This document shows positions 49,068-64,000 of a stretch of DNA of 64,000 nt, one piece after another. Location: NCBI GenBank assembly GCA_963665765.1, contig OY762464.1, forward strand, positions 2,601,958-2,665,957. Direction: 5' to 3'. The stretch is from Acidimicrobiia bacterium. Its GTDB lineage: Bacteria; Actinomycetota; Acidimicrobiia; Spongiisociales; ZC4RG35. Positions within the stretch are counted from its first letter, which is position 1. Each line of letters begins with the position of its first letter. The position numbers and the translations under genes were made by a program. A model generated the notes under the pieces. That model was not told where the DNA came from. It was given only the letters and a program-made list of their open reading frames with translations, and did no database searches.

Positions 49068-50368
49068 GAGGGGTCTCGATCGGGGTATTGGGTGTGCTGG
49101 TGGGAGTTTTGACCTGGGCGGTCAACGCCGGAACCCCGACCACTTCTGCCGCCCCCCCGACCCGGTCGGACTCCGCCCGGGAGAGAGCCGATCATCTGAT
49201 CTGTCCCTTGGCCGAGTTCATCCGCTCCGATACCCAGATCGCGCTTTTGGCTGGGCGGGGAGGATCGGTGGACCTGCAGCGTGTGTCGGGAGGCGAGTGG
49301 TCGTCCTACCGGAAGGTCGACCTGGGAGATGCCGGAGGTTGGATCGGCGGCGTCCCGTCGGGTTCGGGTGTGCTGATGGCGGAGAGCGGCGCCGGATGGT
49401 CGGGAGCGGGGATGGTGAACACCGCTCCCGGGTCGAAATCCACCTGGATGTGCGGGGAGTCGTCTGACATGCTGATGGCTCTGGGTGGTTCCACCCTGGA
49501 GGAGGATCATCTCGATCTGATCCTCTACAACCCCTATATCTGGGACTCCACATCGCGGGTGGCGATCATCAGTGAGCTGGGCGAAGACACCCCGGCGGGG
49601 CTCCGGGAAGTCTATGTGCCGGCGGGGAAGACGGTGAAAGTGAGTCTGGACGAGCCGCTCCGGCTGCGCAGATTCTTGGGCGTCCACGTCGAATCCTCTC
49701 CCGGGAGGGTGGCGTTTTTGCTGCAGCAGGCCGGAAACCAGGAGACGGCGATCATCGAAGGAAGTATTCCCCATACCGAGTGGTGGCTGCCGATCCCCGA
49801 CCTGGAACAGACAGAAACCCACCTGCTGGTAGCGTCCCCATCCGACGCTCCCTCCTCCTACCGTCTGGATCTGATGACCGAAACGGGGCCTGTCTATGGT
49901 TTCGTAGAGGATGATTTGCTTCCCGGCCAACTGATTGCGGTCCCCCTCTCCGACCTGCCCGCCGACGTCACCGGAATACGGGTTTCGGGCACTGTGGGTT
50001 TGGTGGCCGCTTTACGGATGGAGTCCGATGGGCTGCTGGCGATCGGTCCCGGCGCCTCGGGGACTTCCCGACGTTGGTTCCTGCCGGGGGCGGGCGGCGA
50101 CGGGAAGAGCCGCAACCTGGCTTGGTTGCTCAATCCCTCGGTCCTGCCGGTTTCGGCCACGGTATCAGCCGTCGCCGAGGGCGCCTTTTCGCTCCAGATC
50201 ACCATCGCCCCCGAATCGGTGCTGGCCTTCGACCTGGACCTGCTCAGCGGGCTGGCGGAGAATCTCCCCGGTTACCTGGTGGAGGCTGAAGAGGAGATCG
50301 CCGTGGTACGGACCTCTCAAACAGAGGATGGCGCCGCTTCCTATTCGGCCGGCGCACCGGTGGATTGA
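49064..50368 (+). CDS. Secreted/exported hypothetical protein
   Basis: ATGA overlap with the preceding gene. Signal peptide MRGVSIGVLGVLVGVLTWAVNAG. No recognised catalytic motif. Confidence 0.5.
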   Translation: MRGVSIGVLGVLVGVLTWAVNAGTPTTSAAPPTRSDSARERADHLICPLAEFIRSDTQIALLAGRGGSVDLQRVSGGEWSSYRKVDLGDAGGWIGGVPSGSGVLMAESGAGWSGAGMVNTAPGSKSTWMCGESSDMLMALGGSTLEEDHLDLILYNPYIWDSTSRVAIISELGEDTPAGLREVYVPAGKTVKVSLDEPLRLRRFLGVHVESSPGRVAFLLQQAGNQETAIIEGSIPHTEWWLPIPDLEQTETHLLVASPSDAPSSYRLDLMTETGPVYGFVEDDLLPGQLIAVPLSDLPADVTGIRVSGTVGLVAALRMESDGLLAIGPGASGTSRRWFLPGAGGDGKSRNLAWLLNPSVLPVSATVSAVAEGAFSLQITIAPESVLAFDLDLLSGLAENLPGYLVEAEEEIAVVRTSQTEDGAASYSAGAPVD

Positions 50369-51966
50369 TGACTGTCGCCTCCCCCTGGTACTCCCACCGC
50401 CTCTTGGGGCTGGGAGAGCGGAAGGAAGCGATCCGGCGGTGGGAAGCGGGCGAGCTGGTGGAAAGACTGTGGGCCCGCGATGCGTCTTTGTGGGGAACAG
50501 GAGCGTCTGGCGCGGACCGGTGGCTGGGGTGGCTCGATCTTCCCCGGACCATGCACCCCCAGTTGGAGGGAATCGCTCAGATGGCCGAGGAGGTGGCTTC
50601 CGAGGGAATAGAAGACGTGGTTCTGATGGGCATGGGGGGATCCAGTCTGGCGCCGGAAATGTTCTTCTCCGTCTTCGGCGCCGCTCCGGGCCGCCCCCGA
50701 CTTTGGGTGCTCGATTCCACCCATCCGGAAGCGGTGGCCTCTCTGAGGAACCGCATAGACCCATCCCGCGCCTTTTTCGTGGTTTCCTCCAAATCGGGGA
50801 CCACGGTCGAGACACTGTCGTTCTATCGATACTTTTGGGCCGAGTGTCTCGGCGAAGCAGCACGGTTCGCGGCCATCACCGACCGAGGTACCCCCTTGGA
50901 CGGCCTGGCTCGGGAAAAGGGCTTCCGATCGGTGTTCAACGCCCCCGCCGATGTGGGGGGTCGATTCTCGGCGTTCAGTGTGTTCGGGCTGGTGCCCGCC
51001 GCTCTGATCGGGGTGGATCTGCCTACCCTGCTCTCCCGAGCCGAAGAGATGGCCCGGCGCGGGCGCCGCGGGCCATCCGAAAATCCGGCGGTGGGTCTGG
51101 GCTTGACATGGGGATCGGCGGCGGTGGCCGGGAAGGACAAGCTCACTCTCCACACCTCGGAAAGCCTGTCCGCCTTCGTGTCCTGGATGGAGCAATTGGT
51201 GGCCGAAAGCCTCGGCAAGAACGGTCGGGGAATAGTGCCGGTGGGTGGAGAGCCGATCCTGCCGTCCGGCGCATATGGCACCGATCGGGTGGTGTCGGTC
51301 TGGCAGGTGAAGGGCGATCCCCCGGTGGGTGCGCCGGGCTGGGGAGACATTCGCATCGAGTTGGCCGATCGGTTGGATCTGGGCGCCGAGCTGTTTCGAG
51401 CCGAGCTGGGGGTGGCGGCGGCGGGCGAAGTGCTGGGAGTAAACCCTTTTGATCAGCCCGACGTGGAGGAAGCCAAACGCTTGGCGTCGAAGGCGATGAG
51501 CCGTCCGGGCACCTCGGCCCAAGCCCATCTGGCGGCTGCCCAATCAGCTCATGCCCAGGAGACGATCGCCCGGTTGGTGGGGGAGTTGCAGCCCGGCGAT
51601 TATCTGGGGGTGCAGGCCTACTTGCCCCCCGATCCCGAGATCGAAAACGCGATAGGCAAGTTCAGGCGCCGGGTCACCGAGATGAGCGGCGCGCCCACCA
51701 CCTTCGGATACGGCCCGAGATACCTGCATTCCACCGGGCAGGCGCACAAGGGCGGACCTGCGGGTGGGGTGTTCATTCAGATAGTGGACGAACCGCACCT
51801 GGACATCAGGGTCCCGGGGGTCGAATACGGCTTCTCCAAACTGATCTCGGCTCAGGCGGAGGGTGACTACTTTGCCCTTCGGAAAGCGGGCCGTCGGATT
51901 GCTCGAATCAGCGTGGGCTCGGACAGATTAGGGGGTTTGCAGGCAATAGTGGAGGCTTTGGCGTGA
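50365..51966 (+). CDS. pgi: Glucose-6-phosphate isomerase
   Basis: VLMGMGGSSLAPEMF and ADVGGRFSAFSVFGLVPAAL match the PGI signatures. Confidence 0.8.
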   Translation: MMTVASPWYSHRLLGLGERKEAIRRWEAGELVERLWARDASLWGTGASGADRWLGWLDLPRTMHPQLEGIAQMAEEVASEGIEDVVLMGMGGSSLAPEMFFSVFGAAPGRPRLWVLDSTHPEAVASLRNRIDPSRAFFVVSSKSGTTVETLSFYRYFWAECLGEAARFAAITDRGTPLDGLAREKGFRSVFNAPADVGGRFSAFSVFGLVPAALIGVDLPTLLSRAEEMARRGRRGPSENPAVGLGLTWGSAAVAGKDKLTLHTSESLSAFVSWMEQLVAESLGKNGRGIVPVGGEPILPSGAYGTDRVVSVWQVKGDPPVGAPGWGDIRIELADRLDLGAELFRAELGVAAAGEVLGVNPFDQPDVEEAKRLASKAMSRPGTSAQAHLAAAQSAHAQETIARLVGELQPGDYLGVQAYLPPDPEIENAIGKFRRRVTEMSGAPTTFGYGPRYLHSTGQAHKGGPAGGVFIQIVDEPHLDIRVPGVEYGFSKLISAQAEGDYFALRKAGRRIARISVGSDRLGGLQAIVEALA

Positions 51967-52263
51967 AAACCGGAAGAAAAAGTGAAACGAAGACGTTAAT
52001 AGTAAGTCATACTTAAGCACAGGCAATGAGAGAAGGCGAAGGCCCCAAGTGAGAGAGGAGAGGATTTGAAGCATTCCGTAGCACCGACAACCGGATCGTC
52101 GTTTGCGCATGCCCGGTCGATCCTGTCCCCCGGCCATGCCACGTTTCCCGCTCCCGGCATGGTGTGGAGATTTTTGCAGATAAGAGAACGGTCACCGTAA
52201 GCCAATGATCTGACCAGCAGACAGTTCATCGCTTGCGGAGCCGCCGGAAGGCGGCTCTTTGTT

Positions 52264-52638
52264 TTGGAGACAAGGAAAATGAATCAAGAAAATCGACTTG
52301 AGATATTGAGAGACACCCTGGAAAGCCGGGGCGCCTGCTACGGCACCGGCGACACCCACAGCTTCTTCACCAATGGGAGCGAGGCGGTCCGGGTGGCTCA
52401 GATGATCTGTGCCTCCTGTCCTCTGGACGTCCGGTCGGCTTGTCTCGAATACGCCCTCACCACCGGCATGGAATACGGGGTGTGGGGAGGTATCTTCTTC
52501 TGGGACAGCCAAGCCTATTACCGCAAGAGACCCCCGGGCCGTCCCCGCGCCGATGAGGCCTCCCTGCCGGTGGAAGCTTCGAAAGCAGAGCTCTGGGACC
52601 TGGTGCACAAGCTGTCACCCATGGAAAAGAGCGCCTGA
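52264..52638 (+). CDS. whiB: WhiB-family [4Fe-4S] transcription regulator
   Basis: Four Cys in the WhiB arrangement (CYGTGD...MICASCPLDVRSACLEYAL) and the GVWGG turn. AT-rich promoter region upstream. Confidence 0.8.
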   Translation: METRKMNQENRLEILRDTLESRGACYGTGDTHSFFTNGSEAVRVAQMICASCPLDVRSACLEYALTTGMEYGVWGGIFFWDSQAYYRKRPPGRPRADEASLPVEASKAELWDLVHKLSPMEKSA

Positions 52639-52670
52639 TCCGCCGAAGTCGTAATATGAGAGTCAACGAG

Positions 52671-52743
52671 GGGCGTTTAGCTCAGATGGAAGAGCGCTTC
52701 CCTTACAAGGAAGAGGTCGGCGGTTCGATTCCGTCAACGCCCA
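52671..52743 (+). tRNA. tRNA-Val (anticodon TAC)
   Basis: Manual fold: acceptor GGGCGTT/AACGCCC (7 bp), D-arm GCTC-AGATGGA-GAGC, anticodon arm CTTCC-CTTACAA-GGAAG, variable AGGTC, T-arm GGCGG-TTCGATT-CCGTC, discriminator A. No encoded CCA. Confidence 0.85.
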
Positions 52744-53100
52744 CACCGAGGAGTCTGCGATTTATGACGCTGATAGGCTGTTTTTCCCATTTGGGTTGGT
52801 TTTGGGGGTTTTTGACCGTTTCGGAGGGGGCTGTGGCCTAGCCGGGGGGCTGTTTGGTGGTTGTCGGGACGAGGTTCCCCCGGTTTGGCGGACTGTTTTG
52901 GTTGGTTGTTCATGCCACCAGTTTTTGGTGTTGGTGGCGGTAGTTTACGGGGCTTTGGTAGTTGTTGGGTGAGTGTCCGGCAACGGGATATATAGCAGTG
53001 AACTCAAGGTTCATGGTGAAGGAACTGCCGAGGAGTTCCCGAATCGCCAGCGACAGCCCAGCCTGTCCATCTGCTCACCAAGAAACCTCATGGCGGCAAT

Positions 53101-54621
53101 GTGTGCTATTCTGGCGGTATGTCAATGACCATTGAGGTCGCCAACGTCGGCCCGATCCGGCACGCTCAACTGTCCCTTGGCAACCTAAATGTGCTGATCG
53201 GCACAAATGACACTGGTAAGACCTTTTTTGCAACGGTAGTCCATCGCCTATTGGCAGCGAGCACCGACGCATACTTCCCCGACACGGAGCCAGCGGACTA
53301 TATCCCCAAGAACATACACGATTATGTCAGGGAATTCAAAACCACTTCACGGCGAAGTGGAGGCCAAGACAGTGAGAGGGAACTTGTCATTGACGATGAG
53401 ATGCGGACATGGGCGAATGGAATAAACGAATCCACACTCCAGCGGTTCGGTAAAGCCGCACGCCGTGGGATTTCTTACGCGTATGGTGCGCCTACAGAAC
53501 GTCTCCTGCGGCAACCGCTTCTATATTCGAGGCACGAGTCGTACATGTTCATAAAGAACCTCGAACCGCGATGGAGTGTCAGAATAAAGATGGATGGTGA
53601 TAACGAAGCCGACGATTATGTTTGCGTATCCCGCCCGAACCCCGACACTTGGTTGCGTGATGTCTTCAATCCTGCCCTTATCCAGCGGCTGTCTGCACAT
53701 TACGAATTCTTCCAGTCAAAGAATAAGAACAATGAAGTTGATCCCATTCAAGACATCGAAGAGCTATGCCAGTACATACTGTACATGACAGGAGATGTAG
53801 CCTTGTTTCGTCAGTGGCCAAAGGAATGTCTTCATCTTCCCTCTGAGCGCGGCGGCATTATGCAGAGTTACCGCGGAATCACAAGCGCAGCATTGCGGAA
53901 GAGCGCCTTCGCCGGAATTGAGCCTGTCGAAATCGAACCCCTTGACGGTACCTCTAGAGATTTTTTGTCCTTCGTCGTTTCGTCTGGAAGTGAAAAGCCT
54001 CGGTTGACTTCAGATAAGAGCTATGCAAACTGGGCAAAGAACCTTGAAAAGAATCTAAGAGCAAAGATTGAACTTCTCAAAAACCCAAGTGGTCTAGACC
54101 GCATTGTAGCGACCACGCCGGAGGGCCAATTCGAACTCAATCAAACTTCGTCAATGATCTCCGAAGTCTCGCCATTCGTACTTGCGTTAAAGCATCGGTT
54201 GGGAACTCGAGACTATCTCACGATCGACGAGCCAGAGGCACACCTGCATCCGGAAATGCAAATCGAGATCGCTAAATGCTTGGTGGATCTGGCTTCAAAG
54301 GGTTTGACGATCACATTCACAACTCACTCCAATTATTTCGTTGAACAAATAAGCAATGGGATACGCAGCAGTGAACTTGAGACTCATGGCGAGGAGGAGT
54401 TGCCGCCGATTCCTCGAATTGATCCTGAAAATGTTCGCGCGCTCCTATTTGTCCGCGATGACAATGGCTGCGCCGCTATTGACGCTACGGGTGACAGTAT
54501 TGACCCGATAAAGGAAGAAACCTTCACTAAGGCTGCTCGCGCTCAATATGAGCAATCGGTTCCGCTCATTAATCGACTACTCGAGCGAGTCAACGCGACG
54601 GGCGAAGTGGCCGATCAATAG
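53101..54621 (+). CDS. AAA_21/ABC-type (SMC-like) ATPase, first gene of a two-gene defense-like module
   Basis: Walker A LIGTNDTGKTFF near the N-terminus. Distant Walker B/D-loop LTIDEPEAHLHPEMQ and H-loop ITFTTHSNYF, with a ~340-aa insert between them, as in abortive-infection ATPases (Septu PtuA, PARIS AriA, AbiLi). GC ~50%. Confidence 0.7.
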   Translation: MCYSGGMSMTIEVANVGPIRHAQLSLGNLNVLIGTNDTGKTFFATVVHRLLAASTDAYFPDTEPADYIPKNIHDYVREFKTTSRRSGGQDSERELVIDDEMRTWANGINESTLQRFGKAARRGISYAYGAPTERLLRQPLLYSRHESYMFIKNLEPRWSVRIKMDGDNEADDYVCVSRPNPDTWLRDVFNPALIQRLSAHYEFFQSKNKNNEVDPIQDIEELCQYILYMTGDVALFRQWPKECLHLPSERGGIMQSYRGITSAALRKSAFAGIEPVEIEPLDGTSRDFLSFVVSSGSEKPRLTSDKSYANWAKNLEKNLRAKIELLKNPSGLDRIVATTPEGQFELNQTSSMISEVSPFVLALKHRLGTRDYLTIDEPEAHLHPEMQIEIAKCLVDLASKGLTITFTTHSNYFVEQISNGIRSSELETHGEEELPPIPRIDPENVRALLFVRDDNGCAAIDATGDSIDPIKEETFTKAARAQYEQSVPLINRLLERVNATGEVADQ

Positions 54622-54627
54622 GTCGCG

Positions 54628-55212
54628 ATGGACACCCTGGGTTCACCATATATGAAGCCCTGTGGTCACGATTGCCAAATTTGCCGGTTTCATAAGGCAT
54701 TGGTTGATGCAGGAGCCCAATTCAGTTATTCTGACACACTACGTGAGGCCGAGTGTTCATTTACAGTTAGCACCCCCGCATACCCTTGCTGTGTAACCAA
54801 ACTCAAGGTGGATACAGATTACGCGACGTATAGACAGAGGGTGGATCCGCCGGGCCTCACAAAAATGTGCGACTTTGTGGTGGCCTTTTCAACATGCAAA
54901 GGTGCAAGATATAGTGCCATCGAGTTGAAATCGCGAGAGCCATATCTGGAGGATGCAGCGGAACAACTGAAAGAAGGACTTCATCTGATTGTAAATCACC
55001 TGGTTGACGGTCCCCTTAGGCCTGTGCTGCGGGCATACCTTGTCGTGGGTGTGATGACCACGAGGTTGATAGATATTACTCGTACTGAAGGCAGATTGAA
55101 TGTAGATGGCAGGCTCGTCCAAATTGAACTCGTTGAGTGCCTTGAATCGCTGGAAGGCTCGCCAAGTCGTGGGGAGGGTGGTGGTCCGAGGGTTCAAAGA
55201 AGCGGGTTGTGA
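54628..55212 (+). CDS. Small partner protein with N-terminal Cys cluster and a possible PD-(D/E)xK-like nuclease motif
   Basis: 6 bp after the ATPase gene. C12-x3-C16-x2-C19 cluster. CDFVVAF...YSAIELKSR resembles the D...(E)xK core of restriction-endonuclease-fold nucleases. This is inference only. Confidence 0.45.
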   Translation: MDTLGSPYMKPCGHDCQICRFHKALVDAGAQFSYSDTLREAECSFTVSTPAYPCCVTKLKVDTDYATYRQRVDPPGLTKMCDFVVAFSTCKGARYSAIELKSREPYLEDAAEQLKEGLHLIVNHLVDGPLRPVLRAYLVVGVMTTRLIDITRTEGRLNVDGRLVQIELVECLESLEGSPSRGEGGGPRVQRSGL

Positions 55213-55316
55213 CCGGGGGGTATTGAGGACTGGAGATTCCATTCCGACCCATGGATGAGGCGTAGGCAACGTTTCGTGCCAGTCCGGACGCTGCTCTGCG
55301 AGACCGTCCCGAACCG

Positions 55317-55598
55317 GTGTTGTTGGACGAGTGGCAAATAGTGCCCGAGGTGCTGGCCGCGGTGAAACGGGCGGTGGATTCCGACCGTCGTCCGGGACGA
55401 TTCCTCATAACGGGTTCCAACCGAAGGGACACATCTGATCGGTTCTGGGCGGGGACCGGGCGGGTAGTGATGGTCTACATGCAACCTTTGACAGTGGCGG
55501 AAATGCTGTGCCGCCCGAGTGGTGGGTTTGTGGATCGGGTGGTTTCGGGTGATGCGCTTACCGCCGCGGCCGGTCGAGTGTTGGATCGCGGCACGTAA
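55317..55598 (+). pseudogene. Fragment of an AAA_14/DUF4143-type ATPase gene (Walker B region only)
   Basis: LLDEWQIVPEVLAAVKRAVDSDRRPGRFLITGSN parallels the Walker-B/FILTGS block of the 40554-42566 protein. Only ~90 aa remain. Confidence 0.4.
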
Positions 55599-55718
55599 CT
55601 GTTCATATGCAACATATGTTATTCCCGCTCTCACGCGGGACACACTTCCCATATCACGCGCGTCCACCACCAGAAAGCACCGGCAGAGATTCGGACCAGC
55701 GGGGTATATTCAGAGGTT

Positions 55719-56006
55719 GTGGCAGTTGCGCCCGAGTTCCTGGGAATGAAGTTCGGGGTGGCTTACGAAAAGGACACGGAGTCCCACATCCGCATTATCT
55801 ACTGGGACTGGGCCGCCCAGAACTGTCAGCCCAGAACTGTCAGCCAATATGGGATAAACAGCCGGGCTGTTATAGAGGGATGGCTGCCGCAGCTTGGCAT
55901 GTGGGCAATCAACGACTGGGTAGAAGCACACCAGCCCGAATTGCAACAAGCCTGGGAAGACAGCCGGATGGGAAGAGTCCCCGCCTTGATCGAACCACTG
56001 GAATAG
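55719..56006 (+). pseudogene. DUF4160-like gene fragment containing a 13-bp tandem duplication
   Basis: C-terminal AINDWVEAHQPELQQAWEDSR resembles the DUF4160 tail (…EW...H.EEL..NW). CCCAGAACTGTCAG occurs twice in tandem (55811-55843). Confidence 0.3.
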
Positions 56007-56198
56007 AACCAGGTGAACCCGCCCCCGGGACACCAGGAACTGGCCGGTGGGCACTTTCAGTGATCGCCGACAGTTTGTCTTCCCCACTCACCGGCCGGTC
56101 CAGGCCAAAGGTTTGAGGTTGCGCGGACCGATAACCCTGCCATCAACCCTGCTGCTGCCCTTAGGGACGCCGTGGAAATGGAGGCTCAAGTCGGGCGG

Positions 56199-56797
56199 TC
56201 AGCGTCTCCATAAAGCGCCGGAAGTGCGGTAGCCAGCGCTCGAGTCTGCTCGGGTCCACGAGTCCGAGCAGTACAAAGAGTTCCGTCCTTTTTGGTACCC
56301 GCCTTTGCGGAAGGATGCGGTGGCATGTTTCAACGCTTGGATCACCTCCTCTTTGCGACGCTCCTCAAGTCCCTGAACAGGTAGCAGTCGATCCGGATTC
56401 AGGTCGGGAAAGTAATCTCGCAGGGCGCTGTGATCTGCAATCAGCCACGTTTCCATGCATGTGGCCATTAGTTGAGCCTGGTCATCTGAAGCCTGCCTTG
56501 GTCGTGTCCATTTGTCGTTCGCGACCAAATGCTGCCATGCGCCGGAGGAACTCGGCGGCTGATGTTGAGTTTGAACGATGGCCTCGCTATCGACCAAAGG
56601 ATGGGGTAACCATCCCCCTCCCGGAGCGCTGTCCTAAAGTTCCGGTAAGCGCGGGTCTCGGGGGCCGCAGGCGACCACCTTTGGCAGTCGCCCGACAAAG
56701 CCTGCTTGGACGAGCAGATCCCGAAAACCTCTGCGCAATTGGCTCTTGAGTGCGGCTCGGTGCCCCCGCCTCCTTCCGCATACAATACGACATTCAC
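56199..56797 (-). pseudogene. DUF4276 (RloB/AbiLii-like) gene disrupted by frameshifts
   Basis: N-terminal piece MNVVLYAEGGGGTE (TOPRIM-like VEGxTE) in one frame (56468-56797). C-terminal piece with the METWLIADHSALRDYF (E.WLLAD..AL) hallmark in another frame (56199-56597). A third frame carries the middle. Confidence 0.45.
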
Positions 56798-58047
56798 CAG
56801 CGAGTGCCGCCTATTTGTCCAGTGGTCCAGAGCTCACCCAGTCGGTATTCTTCTAGCCATCTGCTTAGACCGTCCTGGCTAAAACGCTCCATCCGTGTGC
56901 ATCCATTGTGATTCTCGAACACCACGATCGCCTCTGGTGTTTCAGATAGGGCGTCGACCAGAATGTCAGAGTGGGTGGTTACAACGACCTGCATACGTTC
57001 GCTGGCCGCAATCAGGTGCTTCGCCAGGCCCGCCACAATATCGGGGTGCAGTCCGAGTTCGGGCTCCTCGATGCAGAGCACCGGCAAGGCATTGGGGTTG
57101 TACAGCATGGTCAGGAGACACAGATAGCGAATGGCCCCATCCGACAGCCTGGTCGCGGGAATCGAACGCCGTCCGCTTTCGGTAAAGAAGATCTGAACCG
57201 ACCCACCGCCGATTACAACTTCATAGCTCGTGAAGCCTTCGTAGAGTTCCCGTAGACCATTGATGACCTGCTGTTTAGCCTCGGGAAAAGCACCCATCTG
57301 ATTGAGAACCAACCCGAGGTTGGAAAAGTCCTCTTCGAGGCGATCCGAACGCCCATCAGCAGGTTGCGATCGGCGCAGTGGAGCACCTCGGCCGAACGCC
57401 CACCCGTCGTATATCTGGATCGAGTTGTAGACGCTGGCCAGCAACGCCAGGTGGGGATAGTCAAACGGTGACCGGAGCTGCTGAAGAATCGACTGATTTG
57501 TCACATCGGGATAGGAACGCCGCGTGAGAGGCCCTGCCGGAGCATGAACGGAGCCCAACCGTACCCATCTGAGACCTGGCCCCGGGCGCAACGGCGGACG
57601 ATCCTCAGGGGAACCCGACAAGACGTCATCCTCAGACCGAGCGCGAATCTTTGCCTCCCTCGAATCCAGACAAGACTCATACAGAAGCGTGTCGGGCTGC
57701 AATGTGACCAGCTCTTTGGTCGGCCACAGTTCGGAGTCAACTGTGCGAAAGGAAATTTGATGGCCAAGTTGCATGCCAGCCGGGGAAACAACCATGTCGA
57801 GCTGCGGTGCCCCGGTCACCTCGCTCTCCCATAACCAACTTCTTGGTCCCCCACCGCGACGGACAACATCCTGAAGCTCGGTCGGAATGCTGCGTATCAA
57901 CCTGAAGACATCAAAAAGGTTGGACTTCCCAGAAGCGTTCGGCCCGATGAGCACATTGAGCATCCCCAGATGCACGGGTGAGGTCTCGGGACCAAATGAA
58001 AGCAACCCTCTTGGCCTGATCGTCTGGATCAAAGGCTGATTGAGCAT
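56794..58047 (-). CDS. AAA_21 ABC-type ATPase (AbiLi-like abortive-infection ATPase)
   Basis: Walker A LIGPNASGKSNLFDV, Walker B/D-loop LCIEEPELGLHPD, H-loop VVVTTHSD. Stop overlaps the start of the DUF4276 remnant. Confidence 0.75.
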   Translation of the reverse strand: MLNQPLIQTIRPRGLLSFGPETSPVHLGMLNVLIGPNASGKSNLFDVFRLIRSIPTELQDVVRRGGGPRSWLWESEVTGAPQLDMVVSPAGMQLGHQISFRTVDSELWPTKELVTLQPDTLLYESCLDSREAKIRARSEDDVLSGSPEDRPPLRPGPGLRWVRLGSVHAPAGPLTRRSYPDVTNQSILQQLRSPFDYPHLALLASVYNSIQIYDGWAFGRGAPLRRSQPADGRSDRLEEDFSNLGLVLNQMGAFPEAKQQVINGLRELYEGFTSYEVVIGGGSVQIFFTESGRRSIPATRLSDGAIRYLCLLTMLYNPNALPVLCIEEPELGLHPDIVAGLAKHLIAASERMQVVVTTHSDILVDALSETPEAIVVFENHNGCTRMERFSQDGLSRWLEEYRLGELWTTGQIGGTRW

Positions 58048-58266
58048 AGATCCCCGGTGGGTGACTGACGTCCCGCTCAGTATAAGCTCTCAATTGTCAG
58101 GGGGTGGAGATTGGGCCGGCGACTGTGCTTATATTCACATAACGCCAAATGCCGAGGCGATAGACAAGCTTAGATGACACTATTAAAAGCGGTCTTGCCT
58201 GTCAATAGGTGTGCCGCCTGGGTGAGTATTCTCCCCAAATTACGGGTGGGAGTTCCTAAAAGAGCG

Positions 58267-58731
58267 TCAGTTTCTGCAAAGCTTTAGGCGCAAGAGACGC
58301 CTGTGTTTTTCGGTCAGTGCTTCCCTTTTGGAGGACGCGTAGATCTTGCCGCGGGGCATGTCGATCAACTCCTTTTTGCTGAAATCGACCCTCAAATCTA
58401 CGTCGTAGGAATAAAGTAGCCTGGCACCGCTTATTTGCGCCAAGGCTAGGATGTGCCAATCGTCAGATCGAATGCGCCTATCTTCGGCTAACTTCGTTGT
58501 GAGTTCGTTGACTCTGTGGTCATCCTCGTTCCGGACTAGACCCGCGTTGATGGCTGCCGAAAGCCACTTGCGCATGGCATTGCCGCAATCCCAATACTCC
58601 TTCCGAAGCTTTTGACCACCCAGCACAACTTTGATCTTCCCATCTTCAACCTGGCTCAGGAAGAACTTTCCGGCAGTACCCACGTCCTTGAATAAGTCCT
58701 TGACGACATTCGCATCAACGATTGCGCACAT
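58267..58731 (-). CDS. PIN-like domain protein (putative nuclease partner)
   Basis: N-terminus MCAIVDANVV (PIN strand-1 Asp) with downstream acidic residues (…QVEDGK…, …NEDDH…, …SYDVDLRVDF…). 3 bp after the upstream ATPase gene. Confidence 0.45.
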   Translation of the reverse strand: MCAIVDANVVKDLFKDVGTAGKFFLSQVEDGKIKVVLGGQKLRKEYWDCGNAMRKWLSAAINAGLVRNEDDHRVNELTTKLAEDRRIRSDDWHILALAQISGARLLYSYDVDLRVDFSKKELIDMPRGKIYASSKREALTEKHRRLLRLKLCRN

Positions 58732-58734
58732 GGC

Positions 58735-60150
58735 TCAGGCGGACATGGAACGCCGCAACTCCTTCATGAAGAACTTGCGGTACCCCGCAGGGGCACCGTC
58801 GATGTTCCCCAGACGGTCCACGCTGATGGAATGGACCTGTACGGCTTGTTCCTCTCGCTTGAAGTACAGAATCGACACGTCTCGTGGCCGCAGACCCACC
58901 GAATTGTCTCGGACAGCCATCCTTACTCGGTCGATGATAAAGTCGCTGTGAGTCTCCACCACAAGTTGCCGACTGGCATTCCGCCTACGCCTAGAACCTG
59001 CGATCTCGCTGAGAAGGCTTCCGAGAGCGGCCGACGCTTTCGGATGCAGATGGACCTCGGGTTGCTGCAGTAGCACCAGCCGCCGACCGTCATGGCGCAG
59101 GAGCTCGGTGATGAGCGGAAGCACCTGACTCACCCCGTAGCCCATATCGACCAGATTGCGCATAGGACCCTTACGCTGTTTACCGGATTTTCGTAGGCGA
59201 ATCTGGAACGGAGCACTCTCGACCTTGCCGAGCCGACGTATCTCAATCTCGGTGAAAAGGCCAGCCTGTCTACCGAACTCCTGAATCCGGGTCTTGAGCG
59301 AGTCCCACTCTTTTGGTTCCCGCAGGGCCAACTGGGCGAGGTACATCGGCACATAGTCGCCCTCGGGATCCGGGGTGGTCCGAGCCGGATCGTAAGTTCG
59401 CTTAGGCTGCGAACGTACCGGAGCACTGGCGAACACCCCTCCGACACCCATGCCACCCCCTACGACACGAGGCCTTGTGCGCGCATACTTGAGGTGTTTT
59501 TCGATCTCAGACAAATCTTCAAATGAGATGGGGGGTGAACCCTTGATCGGCTTGAACCATTCTTCTAATGCCAAGTTGGTCTGACGTTCGGTGTCGAGCG
59601 CCCGTCTGAGAACCCACATTGGGGAATCAACCATAGGCAATCTATTGCTGTCGCGTCCTGGGAGATGAGGGAGATAACCATCTCGGGCGTCCGCCCAAGC
59701 TCCACGGGGACCGCCGTAGATGATGTGGGGCCCATCATCTTCACTGAACCTTTGCTCAACCCAAAACTGACCTTGTGAAACCCGACGGCGTGTGGGAACC
59801 GGTGCCGACAGATAATCAGTGAAGTCAACGTGTGTCGCCATCGCAGAAGCCTTTGCGGCGCCTTTCCGGATAGCCAACTCCATGACCGCGCCGAACTGCT
59901 CGGGTGGCCCACCCCTCGCGCCACTGCGATGGATGATCTCACTAAAGCTGCCCAGATCATAGGGAGGCTCTTTGAAATCCGGTACACGATTGAGGTACGC
60001 AATATCGACCATGGCACGGAGCATTGCCAAAAGCGAGGTCTTGCCAGTGTTGTTATCTCCGACAAGTAAAGTCAATGGTGCCAAGCGGGCGGTCTGCGAA
60101 CCAGCAAAGCAACGGTAGTTGCGGACCGTAATGCTCTTGATTATCTCCAA
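58735..60150 (-). CDS. AAA_15/AAA_21 ABC-type ATPase (DUF3696-like C-terminus), paired with the PIN-like protein
   Basis: Walker A LLVGDNNTGKTSLL, Walker B LVLLQQPEVHLHPKA, H-loop LVVETHSDF, long insert between the A and B motifs. Confidence 0.75.
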   Translation of the reverse strand: MEIIKSITVRNYRCFAGSQTARLAPLTLLVGDNNTGKTSLLAMLRAMVDIAYLNRVPDFKEPPYDLGSFSEIIHRSGARGGPPEQFGAVMELAIRKGAAKASAMATHVDFTDYLSAPVPTRRRVSQGQFWVEQRFSEDDGPHIIYGGPRGAWADARDGYLPHLPGRDSNRLPMVDSPMWVLRRALDTERQTNLALEEWFKPIKGSPPISFEDLSEIEKHLKYARTRPRVVGGGMGVGGVFASAPVRSQPKRTYDPARTTPDPEGDYVPMYLAQLALREPKEWDSLKTRIQEFGRQAGLFTEIEIRRLGKVESAPFQIRLRKSGKQRKGPMRNLVDMGYGVSQVLPLITELLRHDGRRLVLLQQPEVHLHPKASAALGSLLSEIAGSRRRRNASRQLVVETHSDFIIDRVRMAVRDNSVGLRPRDVSILYFKREEQAVQVHSISVDRLGNIDGAPAGYRKFFMKELRRSMSA

Positions 60151-60696
60151 TATGCAGCCTTTCCCGTGCTGGCCCCTTGGAGAAAGAGGCTACTCGCCCA
60201 CCGTGCCGAAGCCAGTCGGAATTGGTTGCTATGCGCTATTTGTCCCCACGGAAGGCTGGCGGGGCATACGCCGCCTCGGTGGAGGGAAAGGCCACCGTCA
60301 ATACCCAGAAGTGCCCACGGCGACCGTCAGGGTCGTAACATCCCCTGGCATCTGATTTCCCAAGAATAGCCCTATCAGGGATCGGGCGGTCGGTCGCAAC
60401 GCCGATGGGGTGGGATGGTTACAAAGACGCCTTGACGGGCAAGGTTCACGCAGGGCCTTATAGGCTAGGAACTCAGTCGGTGTCACGGCTAAGACCCAGA
60501 CGTTGTTCTTCCACCGTGGTGTCGATTCCCCGGGCTCGCTTCCACGCCAGTCTCCGTTCGAGATTCCTGGTGGTGGGTAGTCCAGCTCTAATAAGCTGCT
60601 GTTTAGCTCGCCGCGCCCGCGTCACAGCCTCTTCCATTGTCAGGACTTCCTCCGGCGGGGGTAAGACTTCTGCAGACTCCATAGCCAACTCTCCCT

Positions 60697-61105
60697 CTAC
60701 TCATTGTACCGGGGGCTGCCTTCGGGATCGGTCAGGATACATTGTCGCTCGCGAGCGAGGAACCGTTTCAGGCAGCGGATGATGTCCTTTTTGGAGAGGT
60801 CTTCGGTGGTGCGCCGAGCGACGTAGTCGATGGTGGCTGGTGGAATCGTATTCGGACTATGGCTACCCGGTATAGCGCCGCGTTGGCTTGTCGGTATCCG
60901 CCTCTGTAGAGGCAATGCCGGTTGGTCTGTCCTGATGAGGCTGGAATCGGACAGGTACCGCGCGGAGTTTGACGAATGCGGCCTCAGAACGGATCCGTTG
61001 GGGGTTGTCGCCGAACACGATGAGAAGCTCTGCTACGGAGTCGGCTCCGATGTCGTAACCGTCTCGTAGTGTTGGGGAGGCTTGGGCGGTGAGGTCATCG
61101 AGCAC
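60697..61105 (-). mobile_element. IS110-family transposase remnant (Transposase_20 region, frameshifted)
   Basis: LRDGYDIGADSVAELLIVFGDNPQRIRSEAAFVKLRAVPVRFQ matches the IS110 C-domain pattern (L.sIPGiG..tAa.Lla.iGD..rF.s...l.ayaGlaP). The adjacent frame carries …DIIRCLKRFLARE. Confidence 0.4.
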
Positions 61106-61136
61106 GGCATCATGGGAGCGGATCTCGGTGTCGAGG

Positions 61137-61290
61137 TGGAGCCTGGTTCGAGACCGCGGTCAATCAGGTCCTGGCGTCGCCAGTTGTAGATGGTCTGGTC
61201 TGACACTCCAAGGTCCTTCGACTGAGATGCAACTGACCTGCCGGTTGCCAGCAGATCCAGGGGCCTGCGACGGAACTCGGGTGGACATTT
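61137..61290 (-). mobile_element. IS3-family OrfA (HTH) remnant
   Basis: EFRRRPLDLLATGRSVASQSKDLGVSDQTIYNWRRQ matches the IS3/IS911 OrfA helix-turn-helix. Confidence 0.45.
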
Positions 61291-61803
61291 CGATACGGCA
61301 TGAAGACCCTCCTTTTCGGGGTCGGTCACACCGTCAATTCGAATAACCCGACTCCACCAAAGTGGGGGCACACCTAACCCTCCAAAAACCCGGGGGTGAT
61401 TCACGCGCATCCCCCTGACCAGGCAAAACACAAACCACCCGCCAAATTCGGGTCCGAGTTAGAAAAACTCCGGGCGAACTGGCCGTTCACCCAGCGAGTG
61501 AACCTACTCGGATGATTCAGGTTCCGTTAGGAAGCGATGGTAATAGTGGCATTGGGGGTGTTCATGTTCGCCTATGTGGTCGCAAGGATGGCACAGTGGC
61601 TTACCCGAGGTTGAACGGAGATTCGAAACCAGCGGTCGAGCCTCCGGATGGAGCTTTCATCGCGGTTAGCGCCAGCCTCTCCCATGCCTACCGCTCCCAG
61701 ATTGGTGGGGCGGTCCTGAAAAACAACTAGGCGCTGTGAGTCGGCCGTTCAGAGAGGCCGTCTCGTCATGGGGGTGTGGAAGAGTGGAAGATTGGTTTAA
61801 ATG

Positions 61804-61833
61804 GAAGGAGGCTCCTTGAGGGGAGCCTCCTTC
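61804..61833 (-). terminator. Hairpin (12-bp perfect stem GAAGGAGGCTCC/GGAGCCTCCTTC, 6-nt loop) just downstream of the SLH-protein gene stop
   Basis: Seen directly in the sequence; only a weak flanking A/T run. Confidence 0.4.
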
Positions 61834-61856
61834 TGATAGTCGAAACGTTTTTCTGT

Positions 61857-64000
61857 TTACGAAGCTTCTGTTGCAACGCGGAAGATGCTGGAACCGTCGT
61901 CGTAGGACACGACCACGATGTTGGCCTGAGTCGTCGGTTGTTCATCAAGGTTGGCACCGATCAGCTTCTCGAACGCGGCCACACCGTCGACTACCTTGTT
62001 ACCTGCAGTTGTATCCGTGTCCAGGAAGACGTCGTCCGAGTCGTAGCTGTACAACAAGCCGTCGATCAGGAACCGGTCCTCGTCACCATAGACCATATCT
62101 ATGTCAGCGGCGGGGTTGGAGCTGTCGTCCGGAGCATTTTCCACCGCCAGCACCGAGGTGGCCGTAACGGTTGGGGCACCAGTGAGGTCCTCGCCGTCGG
62201 AATCCTGGATTGCTGTGTAGGTCACCCCTACCTCGCCGCCCAAGGCCGCTTGGACAACCGTAGCACGCCAACTGGCTATGCCTCTGCTGCTGATCGTCCG
62301 ACGGGCGGGATCGTCATCATCTGCGATGGTGATCAAGACCGAGTTGCCCTTGCCGGCGGGGTTGCCGTACTGGTCGTAGAACGTCACCGTGGCACGGATG
62401 GTCACCTCGTTCTTGCTGTTCCTAAGAGCGTAGTCAGGAGTACTGCCCTCACCCTTACCCGTAGATGCCCGAGAGATAGCGACGTCGTCGGCGTTGGTGG
62501 TGGCTACGGCCGAAGCCAGCGTCGGATTGGAGTCCGTCCACACGATCGTCGCTGTCACACTCTCAGATGGATCACTCGCATCGGTGGTATCAGCTTCTCC
62601 AACAGTTCCGTCGCCGTTCGCATCGGCACTGAACTCAACCGTGTCGGTCCTGTCAACATCGGTAGCGCCCTTGGTCGACTTCGGACCACTAGTGGTGTAG
62701 GTCACCTGACCGTCGTCATCGGTCTTCATCTTTGCAGGCCCCGGATGGAGGGTATTTGCACCCTGCATCACGGTCAGACTGACTTCCACGCCAGCCTTGG
62801 CCACCGGCTCACCGTCACCGTCTACCAACTGCGCGGTGAGAGTGACATCGTCACCGGAATCAATGTCCACCGTGTTGCCATCAGTGGAGTTCTTGCTGAT
62901 GTCGGTCGTGACCTTCAGGTTCACAGCATCGGTGGTGGAAGACAACGTGACAGACACATGGGGGGACGTGTCAACATCGAAGTCGTTCTCGTCGGCGTCG
63001 GCATCGCCCATCCACGCATAGTACGTGTTCATCTTCCCGTCTTCGACGGTACCTTCCTCGTAGATGTTGCCCGAAGCGTCGGTCAGCGACTCGTCATCGG
63101 TCCACGCACACTCATCAGCCTCTTCGCAGCCGCCGTCCTCGTCGAACTCACCAACCGTGTCGCTGTCGAAGGTCTTGACGGACACATCAATCATCGGAGC
63201 GAAGCTGTCATCCCGATACGACACAGCAACAGTGGGACTGAAGTCACCGAAGTCCCAGGTTTCGGAAGCCTGGATCGTCACACCGGCCGGACGTGCGTTG
63301 GAATGATCCAACACACCAGCCATGAACTCAGCCATGACAGCCCGGGTGATCGAAATATCCGGAGCATAAGACGTATCGTTGATACCCGAAACAACACCCA
63401 ACTCCCACAACGCGGTGATCGCGTCATACGCTTCCTTGGTCGAACTCTTCAAGTCGGTGAACGGAGACTCCACCTTCTTGGTCTCGTCCACATCAGTGTC
63501 GTCGTCGTCCTCGGCAGGTTTCACATCTTCGGGGGTATACCCGAACACAGTGTCGCTGTCCTCGGCCATCGGGTCCATTTTGTCCATCAACCTGGCAACG
63601 AACAACGCCATGTGACCACGTCTCACCGCATCGCCAGGCGAATAAGTAGTCGCCGAGGTGCCCTGGGTGATCTCCAGATCGGCCAACTGATTGATGGCGG
63701 TCTGCGAATCGTCGGACAAATCACCGATGTCGGTGAAACCCGCATCATCAGGATCGGAAGCCATGTCAATGCCCACCAGACCAGCCAGACGGGTCAAAAA
63801 CAGGGCCATCTGCTCACGGGTGACCGACATCAACGGCGAATAAGTAGTCGCCGAGGTGCCCTTCGTCACTCCATAGTAGGCAATACAGTCGATGTCACCA
63901 GCGTTGGTATGACCTGCGGGAACATCGGTGAAGTCCGACGAACCCACACCCACGCACGCATCGAACGTAGCCTTATAGTCCATCTTCGGGTCGTCATCAG
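61857..64000 (-). CDS. Large secreted surface protein with three N-terminal SLH (S-layer homology) repeats and Ig-like/beta-rich C-terminal region; partial, N-terminus beyond the window end
   Basis: Repeated FTDV...A(I/Y)..L...GI..G.......P....TR.QMA.FL.R SLH motifs. The ORF stays open to the window edge. Acidic Thr/Asp/Val-rich C-terminal half. Confidence 0.7.
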   Translation of the reverse strand, partial: DDDPKMDYKATFDACVGVGSSDFTDVPAGHTNAGDIDCIAYYGVTKGTSATTYSPLMSVTREQMALFLTRLAGLVGIDMASDPDDAGFTDIGDLSDDSQTAINQLADLEITQGTSATTYSPGDAVRRGHMALFVARLMDKMDPMAEDSDTVFGYTPEDVKPAEDDDDTDVDETKKVESPFTDLKSSTKEAYDAITALWELGVVSGINDTSYAPDISITRAVMAEFMAGVLDHSNARPAGVTIQASETWDFGDFSPTVAVSYRDDSFAPMIDVSVKTFDSDTVGEFDEDGGCEEADECAWTDDESLTDASGNIYEEGTVEDGKMNTYYAWMGDADADENDFDVDTSPHVSVTLSSTTDAVNLKVTTDISKNSTDGNTVDIDSGDDVTLTAQLVDGDGEPVAKAGVEVSLTVMQGANTLHPGPAKMKTDDDGQVTYTTSGPKSTKGATDVDRTDTVEFSADANGDGTVGEADTTDASDPSESVTATIVWTDSNPTLASAVATTNADDVAISRASTGKGEGSTPDYALRNSKNEVTIRATVTFYDQYGNPAGKGNSVLITIADDDDPARRTISSRGIASWRATVVQAALGGEVGVTYTAIQDSDGEDLTGAPTVTATSVLAVENAPDDSSNPAADIDMVYGDEDRFLIDGLLYSYDSDDVFLDTDTTAGNKVVDGVAAFEKLIGANLDEQPTTQANIVVVSYDDGSSIFRVATEAS

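Follow-up and report, generated by a model that had tools for sequence, protein, structure and literature searches.

What does a bacterium gain from a compact gene pair that places an ATP-binding cassette (ABC) ATPase directly upstream of a small PIN-domain protein? We analyzed one such pair in a 64,000-nucleotide (nt) stretch of an Acidimicrobiia genome (contig OY762464.1, positions 2,601,958 to 2,665,957; hereafter the window). The ATPase gene occupies 58735..60150 (471 amino acids, aa; TTG start) and the PIN gene, encoding a predicted metal-dependent ribonuclease effector, 58267..58731 (154 aa; ATG start); these genes and all features of the pair described below lie on the minus strand. The two are separated by a 3-nt spacer (58732..58734, in the context TGA GCC ATG), and translational coupling across this junction is likely. 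The list of open reading frames (ORFs) and the sequence agree with the original prediction of two ORFs 3 bp apart at these positions, and the motifs quoted there were located at aa 31-39 (GDNNTGKTS), 360-370 (LLQQPEVHLHP) and 399-403 (ETHSD) of the ATPase and aa 1-10 (MCAIVDANVV) of the small protein. A scan for promoters and terminators gave nothing exceeding the shuffled expectation. ABC-ATPase-gated nucleases, among them PARIS, Septu, Gabija, Menshen and HEC-01 to HEC-04, form a major class of bacterial immunity. Our analysis argues, on balance, that the two genes make up an immunity module of the toxin type that stands on its own and most likely serves abortive-infection defence; the predicted function and the arrangement of the genes fit well inside a known type of system.

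The assignment of the 154-aa protein to the PIN superfamily, proposed in the original prediction, held up when its relatives were considered. By itself the protein falls below threshold against the Pfam PIN family (E 0.061, 14.4 bits, cut-off 23.6). Among 46 diverse homologues searched against Pfam, 40 match PF01850 at E <= 0.01 (best 8.4e-8), with PIN_3 and DUF4411 matching just one each. A search of PADLOC and NCBIfam with the protein returned no match, and a single-sequence search against solved structures gave only chance matches to de novo TIM barrels. The family profile run against PDB sequences had a sole return, a K. pneumoniae VapC (E 0.13), whose first Asp aligns with D6 of the small protein. 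The AlphaFold2 model built on an alignment of homologues (pLDDT, the predicted local distance difference test score, 77.5; predicted template modelling score, pTM, 0.73) shows the alternating strand and helix order of a PIN domain, and the predicted fold is a three-layer alpha/beta/alpha arrangement with a parallel beta-sheet that is superposable on solved PIN domains. Its structural matches include Nob1, Utp24 and SMG6, and it is VapC-like. A word-indexed search identified 465 homologues, and an exhaustive profile search 1,876 clusters at 50% identity (1,299 at E <= 1e-10); nearly all of the 150 best representatives stand alone as proteins of ~150-170 aa and are matched end to end. An exact-sequence search of the assembly index with the window's PIN protein returned no record.

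All four acidic PIN residues are kept in 75/75 aligned sequences. D6 (58714..58716) stands at the end of strand 1 (residues 2-5), and E45 (58597..58599), in helix 40-47, aligns with the invariant E-Y of the HEC-03 PIN proteins discussed below. The S89-x-D91 motif (58459..58467) supplies a hydroxyl and the second catalytic Asp, with D91 starting helix 92-101 and H93 (58453-58455) beside it, and the D110...D116-F117 segment (58384..58404) supplies the third catalytic Asp and an extra Asp, D110 lying after strand 4 (104-107) and before helix 111-118. S89, H93, L113, D116 and F117 are likewise invariant in 75/75. We take D6, E45, D91 and D110 to be the D-E-D-D site of PIN domains and S89 to be their conserved hydroxyl residue. 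Since all of these residues are invariant, the protein is predicted to be catalytically competent; as judged from sequence, its PIN domain is genuine and its catalytic residues are intact. Conservation also extends to non-canonical positions: C2 (58726-58728) is kept in 74/75 sequences, C152 (58276-58278), three residues before the C-terminus, in 75/75, and H143 in 68/75. Through C2 and C152 the two termini could be linked by a disulfide bond, by a metal site or as a redox switch.

Intact catalytic residues bear on whether the PIN protein is the effector at all. The Menshen system, reportedly described by Millman et al. in 2022, offers a precedent for a PIN-like domain that is not. It comprises NsnA (ParB-DUF262), on which it depends, NsnB and NsnC, and all 35 families of NsnC N-terminal PIN-like domains are reported to be catalytically dead and fused to nucleases (PMC12065111). 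By analogy with the inactive PIN of NsnC, the protein studied here could be a non-catalytic adaptor or RNA-binding module, with the real effector encoded elsewhere, and the resemblance of the studied ATPase to NsnB, the type of ATPase with which those dead domains occur (PMC12065111), speaks for this. We nevertheless consider an adaptor role most improbable: the four acidic residues, the Ser and the fifth Asp are invariant, the best 150 representatives have no fused second domain, and, as described below, no third gene is conserved beside the pair.

The description of the 471-aa protein as an ABC-type ATPase was confirmed by Pfam matches, well past any chance level, to AAA_15 (3.7e-21) and AAA_21 (1.5e-16). 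Its AlphaFold2 model (pLDDT 82, pTM 0.86) has the fold of an ABC head, and Foldseek returned Rad50/SMC heads as the best matches (E ~1e-11), together with the SMC structure 5H68 and a retron-IA Septu-type ATPase; 5H68 is a match reported for NsnB too (PMC12065111). The best PADLOC matches, each partial, are NsnB (2e-41), PDC-M55A (1.2e-31) and the HEC-03 ATPase model (1.3e-22), and the AriA, GajA and PtuA models are matched at 1e-9 to 1e-22. Against Pfam DUF3696 (PF12476), residues 421-456 score 21.2 bits (E 3.6e-4; cut-off 22). In a tblastn search of plasmids only distant relatives of the ATPase were found. They share 25-39% identity with its C-terminal half and almost without exception are annotated as DUF3696 domain-containing, the annotation of its closest cultured relatives.

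The motifs of the ATPase refine this placement. The Walker A motif or P-loop (GDNNTGKTS, aa 31-39; 60034..60060) keeps G31, N33, G36, K37, T38 and S39 in at least 74/75 sequences, and the H-loop (ETHSD, aa 399-403; 58942..58956) has E399 and H401 invariant in 79/79. The Q-loop is replaced by an Arg motif (APVRSQPKRTY, aa 243-253; 59392..59424), with P244, R246, P249, R251, T252 and Y253 invariant, which aligns with the GPLR..P.R.Y of HEC-03 and PDC-M55. The signature-like sequence DMGYGVSQ (aa 335-342; 59125..59148), with GxG and not SGG, has D335, G337, Y338, G339 and Q342 in 79/79, and the DxGxGxSQ pattern is common to the HEC-03 (DVGFGVSQ) and PDC-M55 (DVGHGLSQ) ATPases. The C-terminal beta-hairpin and helix (aa 421-471; 58738..58890; conservation 0.74-0.81) are DUF3696-like and predicted to bind the partner; in the model they comprise strands within 425-444 and helix 455-470, and their GN..P..Y..FF..E motif is also found at the C-terminus of the HEC-03 and PDC-M55 ATPases. 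Column conservation is 0.7-0.95 in the core and C-terminus, compared with 0.25-0.49, with indels, in the region that we call Insert-1 (aa ~81-240; 59431..59910), a candidate sensor surface; the model has a beta-rich insert, and its loops 226-264 are of low confidence. The deviations described for NsnB are a Q-to-R change at the Q-loop, GxG for SGG and a non-canonical Walker B (PMC12065111). On these sequence grounds the ATPase belongs to the DUF3696 clade with the Menshen NsnB, HEC-03 and PDC-M55 ATPases.

The Walker motifs named in the original prediction were borne out for Walker A and the H-loop, but the proposed Walker B (LVLLQQPEVHLHP, aa 358-370; 59041..59079) is degenerate, with Gln-Gln where the canonical motif has Asp-Glu. 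Q362, Q363, P364 and E365 are invariant in 79/79 sequences, and the QQ dyad before 'PE.HLHP' is accompanied by an equally invariant P-loop (GxNxxGKTS) and H-loop. In alignments, the dyad is DE in a PD-T4-4-like ATPase and EE in a HEC-01-like ATPase encoded elsewhere in the window, and EQ in the HEC-03 and PDC-M55 ATPases; in NsnB it is EN (PMC12065111). Across the series DE, EE, EQ, EN and QQ the Walker B carboxylates are thus lost stepwise. E-to-Q mutants of ABC ATPases retain ATP binding and dimerization and lose hydrolysis. Given that the P-loop Lys and the H-loop His are kept alongside QQ, ATP binding with slow or no hydrolysis is expected. From the residues we infer the effect of QQ on hydrolysis, which suggests that the ATPase may be a nucleotide-dependent latch, not a motor. 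The dyad is in effect a natural counterpart of the classic hydrolysis-blocking E-to-Q mutant and could open the question of binding versus hydrolysis to testing.

The relationship between the two genes was examined in a one-genome-per-species scan of GTDB, in which 238 loci had a relative of the PIN protein; the best 80 of these were fetched. An ATPase homologue (42-74% identity) ends directly upstream on the same strand in 79/80 loci, the exception being cut by a contig end, so that the pairing of homologues with an ATPase assumed in the original prediction is the rule. The modal gap between the genes is 3 nt (35/77 loci), and nearly all gaps fall between -16 and +23 nt. Pairwise identities of the ATPases and PIN proteins are correlated in a mirror-tree comparison (r 0.77, Mantel p 0.001), and the two proteins have therefore been inherited, and have diverged, together. 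No third gene is conserved: no flanking cluster occurs in more than 11/78 loci, and the clusters that do recur reflect synteny within Caldilineaceae. Collectively, these data establish the ATPase and PIN genes as an obligate, self-contained two-gene unit. The 80 closest loci span at least 12 phyla (Chloroflexota 28, Acidobacteriota 11, Pseudomonadota 9, Acidimicrobiia 8, Latescibacterota 6, Gemmatimonadota 5, and others). Sponge microbiomes typically have such a combination of taxa, and Ca. Poriferisodalis and Ca. Spongiisociaceae are among the names represented; one locus (L040; MPMZ, bin75) is from a symbiont bin of Aplysina aerophoba and another (L001; MPNA, bin76) from the same series (PMC5649159). 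This pattern suggests habitat-wide horizontal spread of the pair, the whole family being far larger than this sample. In three loci the ATPase match is in two pieces (L069:2502-4991, L019:3589-4966 and L041:3643-4982). A distance of ~1.2 kb between the pieces points to an insertion in the first of these, from Ca. Poriferisodalis, and frameshifts are suggested in the other two; these would be cases of occasional ATPase decay with the PIN gene remaining.

This survey also bears on the idea that a three-gene Menshen system decayed to the present pair by losing NsnA and the nuclease half of NsnC, an origin consistent with NsnB being the best PADLOC match of the ATPase and with the pseudogenes and insertion sequence (IS) fragments around the pair in the window. 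However, 79/80 loci, from at least 12 phyla, have the two-gene arrangement intact, with strongly conserved motifs in both proteins, and a remnant would not be so maintained across a PIN family of the size found here. Moreover, a motif search for the DUF262 signature DGxQR, covering the position directly upstream of the pair in the 80 loci and the stretch 50000 to 64000 of the window, found no such ORF, and none of the families recorded for the nearest neighbours of the related loci is DUF262. The remnant explanation is effectively refuted.

Likenesses to Menshen itself are nonetheless considerable: the ATPases have in common the Arg in place of the Q-loop Gln, the GxG signature, a non-canonical Walker B and a DUF3696-like C-terminus, and both have a downstream partner with a PIN fold. 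AlphaFold 3 models of Menshen place the PIN-like domain of NsnC in a clamp formed by the two DUF3696 C-termini of an NsnB dimer (PMC12065111). The studied loci differ from Menshen in having no NsnA gene, in a partner that is a single-domain 154-aa PIN protein with catalytic residues and not an inactive PIN with a C-terminal nuclease, and in a fixed, co-evolving pair in place of the domain shuffling seen in NsnC (PMC12065111). We rejected identity with Menshen on the first two of these grounds. The apparently active PIN here and the inactivated PIN there offer a natural comparison for the change from effector to adaptor.

The closest match in architecture is HEC-03 (Hma-embedded candidate 3; Payne et al. 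2024), an ABC ATPase with a VapC-like PIN protein that protected E. coli against phages, both genes being needed (bioRxiv 10.1101/2024.01.29.577857). PADLOC-DB v2.0.0 represents this system by PDLC04147/PDLC04148, a 159-residue PIN model named 'HEC-03A' and a 458-residue ATPase model named 'HEC-03B', whereas the preprint uses the names in reverse, with the ATPase as HEC-03A and the PIN protein as HEC-03B (bioRxiv 10.1101/2024.01.29.577857), so that hit tables are easily misread. For comparison we used loci among the plasmid relatives of the ATPase, those from Aeromonas and Rhodococcus being bona fide HEC-03 and that from Bacillus PDC-M55, as classified by PADLOC. The studied pair and HEC-03 have the same two-gene order, a DUF3696-clade ATPase followed by a VapC-like PIN protein of ~155-175 aa with catalytic acids, the genes overlapping or nearly so, and both ATPases carry the Arg motif, the GxG signature and the C-terminal FF..E motif. 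Residues D6, the E45-Y46 pair, W56, D91 and D110 of the studied PIN protein line up with the HEC-03 PIN proteins.

There are also differences. The studied ATPase matches the HEC-03 model only at aa 275-457 (1.3e-22), while the true members match over aa 1-458 (7e-134 and 4.5e-110), and its identity to the HEC-03 ATPases is only 25-28%. The Walker B dyad is EQ in HEC-03 and QQ here. HEC-03 PIN proteins have a Cys-rich insertion past the last catalytic Asp; those studied here have a different tail with an invariant PRGK.Y and C152. Finally, an RNA ligase gene lies downstream in the two HEC-03 loci examined, with none in the studied family. These genes follow the PIN gene on the same strand in an Aeromonas veronii plasmid (L082:5277-5978) and a Rhodococcus aetherivorans plasmid (L083:5307-5906); the Aeromonas product matches PF09414 (2.2e-33) and its gene begins after a 3-nt gap, and the Rhodococcus product carries the annotation 'RNA ligase family protein'; the two hosts belong to different phyla. 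An RNA-repair enzyme linked to HEC-03, which is described as a two-gene system, would hint that RNA is the target and that a recovery step may exist, a circumstantial clue that comes from a sister family.

Other two-gene systems resemble the pair in more general ways. PARIS (AriA-AriB), Septu (PtuA-PtuB), HEC-01/HEC-02 and PD-T4-4 likewise set an oligomeric OLD-type ABC ATPase beside a nuclease that it gates or sequesters, and such gating was shown experimentally for PARIS and Septu (PMC12065111). Their effectors are Toprim, HNH, NERD and DUF4276 proteins, in contrast to the PIN protein here, and their ATPases are of a different subfamily, the Arg and GxG motifs with a degenerate Walker B being found only in the DUF3696 clade. 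VapBC shares the VapC fold and the D-E-D-D active site, but no small DNA-binding VapB is present; the upstream gene is an ABC ATPase (471 aa in the window) in 79/80 loci. Payne et al. make the equivalent point for HEC-03 (bioRxiv 10.1101/2024.01.29.577857). We rejected identity with VapBC because of the missing VapB antitoxin. The pair is thus a separate, uncatalogued family within the known 'DUF3696-clade ABC ATPase plus PIN' type, and HEC-03 is its closest architectural and, via the ATPase, evolutionary precedent. It represents a large uncatalogued branch whose PIN protein is invisible to current PADLOC models, as a result of which defence annotation pipelines would miss the family.

With these precedents, a mechanism can be proposed for an abortive-infection module. 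The ATPase would oligomerize through its ABC head, and its C-terminal DUF3696-like hairpin and helix (aa 421-471) would keep the PIN protein inactive. Insert-1, proposed as the sensor because variation is concentrated in aa 81-240, may recognize an infection cue, upon which a nucleotide-dependent conformational change would release or activate the PIN nuclease. Cleavage of cellular RNA, phage RNA or both could then lead to growth arrest. The physical ATPase-PIN complex, the trigger, the RNA target and the anti-phage outcome are elements of this scheme that we infer. A more speculative extension, which we offer only tentatively and think unlikely, is that the family is a stand-alone counterpart, with its catalytic site intact, of the interaction between NsnB and the inactive PIN of NsnC: DUF3696 systems with the PIN protein as effector, as here and in HEC-03, would be ancestral, and Menshen would later have demoted the PIN domain to an adaptor for swappable nucleases. 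The ATPase of the pair, with both Walker B carboxylates lost, could in addition be naturally deficient in hydrolysis and gate the toxin purely by binding and releasing ATP, for example by sensing a collapse of the nucleotide pool or through a phage protein that breaks the ATP-bound dimer.

Several results weigh against an abortive-infection module of this kind. Confidence in the PIN model is moderate, its C-terminal 30 residues having pLDDT 58-69, and E365 of the 'PE' in the Walker B might serve as an alternative catalytic base, in which case hydrolysis would be retained. The HEC-03 PIN model matches 0/46 of the studied PIN proteins (E <= 0.01), compared with ~2e-24 for true members, and hhalign between the two PIN profiles gave a weak alignment of the N-terminal half (E 0.008, probability 5%). 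The genomic neighbourhood is also mostly one of housekeeping genes: among the 135 nearest-neighbour ORFs of the related loci, the commonest were short-chain dehydrogenases, alpha/beta hydrolases, GMC oxidoreductases and transporters, with only ~5/135 AAA_15/21 ATPases and 2 DNA methylases (raw counts with no background control). Guilt by association with defence genes is accordingly weak outside the window, and an island setting is not general. No relatives were found in 2.9 million viral contigs (IMG/VR), and no PIN relatives in 72,556 plasmids, unlike many mobile defence systems.

Further comparisons of the PIN proteins were in line with their distance from HEC-03. PADLOC run on all 46 family members gave no match to the HEC-03 or PDC-M55 partners, and hhalign of the family against single HEC-03 or PDC-M55 partners was weak, so a specific PIN-to-PIN relationship is not established. 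Membership of HEC-03 by sequence was rejected, the ATPase match being partial and the PIN match absent, and because the PIN similarity is weak the analogy to HEC-03 rests on architecture and the ATPase clade. Likewise, since the neighbourhood signal is not general, the assignment to defence rests mainly on homology and architecture. The abortive-infection function put forward in the original prediction is supported, with architecture, homology and the HEC-03 precedent in its favour and the housekeeping surroundings of most related loci as a caveat.

The strongest competing account is that the pair is a toxin-antitoxin or addiction cassette, in which a PIN ribonuclease toxin and its proteinaceous ATPase antidote persist as a module that is selfish or serves a stress response, without being dedicated to acting against phages. 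A free-standing two-gene cassette among housekeeping genes in most genomes, encoding a VapC-like PIN protein, would look like this, and spread over at least 12 phyla at ~45% identity fits horizontal transfer of such a cassette; the closest loci also come from sponge-symbiont consortia, which are reportedly rich in toxin-antitoxin systems, including VapC. Yet an ABC ATPase of 471 aa with a hypervariable insert takes the place of a small, labile antitoxin that binds DNA, HEC-03 with its equivalent architecture protected against phages, and plasmids, on which addiction modules are common, lack the family. We regard a cassette without an anti-phage role as improbable, though it deserves more weight than the other alternatives; the distinction between toxin-antitoxin and abortive-infection systems is in any case partly semantic.

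Within the window, the surroundings of the pair are those of a typical defence island. The guanine-plus-cytosine (GC) content drops from 0.62 to 0.56 in the stretch 52745-61500, which contains the pair and begins after a tRNA-Val (52671-52744); a WhiB gene (52264-52638) also precedes the drop. This low-GC stretch carries three ATPase pairs, as well as pseudogenes and IS fragments, and looks like a tRNA-flanked genomic island, although a search for an attachment (att) site as a repeat of the tRNA-Val 3´ end found no direct repeat. These surroundings are relevant to another explanation, that the pair has a housekeeping function, a PIN endonuclease assisted by the ATPase taking part in the processing or quality control of RNA, and plays no role in conflict. 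The RNA-maturation PIN nucleases Nob1, Utp24 and SMG6 among the structural matches, and the mostly housekeeping neighbours elsewhere, would be expected of such a function. Those neighbours vary by genome, however, and the distribution across phyla is patchy; the window pair sits in the low-GC island with two other defence-type pairs, and outside this family its ATPase clade is known from defence systems only. We therefore consider a housekeeping role very unlikely and favour defence.

The second ATPase pair in the island consists of a 506-aa AAA_15/21 ATPase (53101-54621, plus strand) followed after 6 nt by a 194-aa protein (54628-55212, plus strand). The ATPase has a canonical DE Walker B and PD-T4-4_A as its best PADLOC match (4.8e-24); its partner has no Pfam match and a faint match to PD-T4-4_B (E 0.048). 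The third pair comprises a HEC-01A-like ATPase (56794-58047, minus strand; PADLOC 7.5e-128, full length) and a DUF4276/HEC-01B Toprim partner (56199-56797, minus strand), which appears to be split by a 1-nt frameshift at ~56590-56600, beside CCCC/TTT runs. The N-terminal piece is the ORF 56468-56797, which overlaps the stop codon of the ATPase gene, and the C-terminal piece, 56199-56597, covers positions 69-171 of the 202 in HEC-01B; the gene is either a pseudogene or the product of an assembly error. Also in the island are a fragment of an AAA_14 gene (55317-55598), an ORF with a weak match to DUF4160 (55719-56006) and IS/transposase fragments (HTH_Tnp_1; 60473-61431). Beyond it, an S-layer-homology (SLH) protein gene (61857-63983, minus strand; 708 aa) contains an exact 28-nt direct repeat (63637-63664 and 63835-63862, 198 nt apart), which probably reflects repeated SLH domains.

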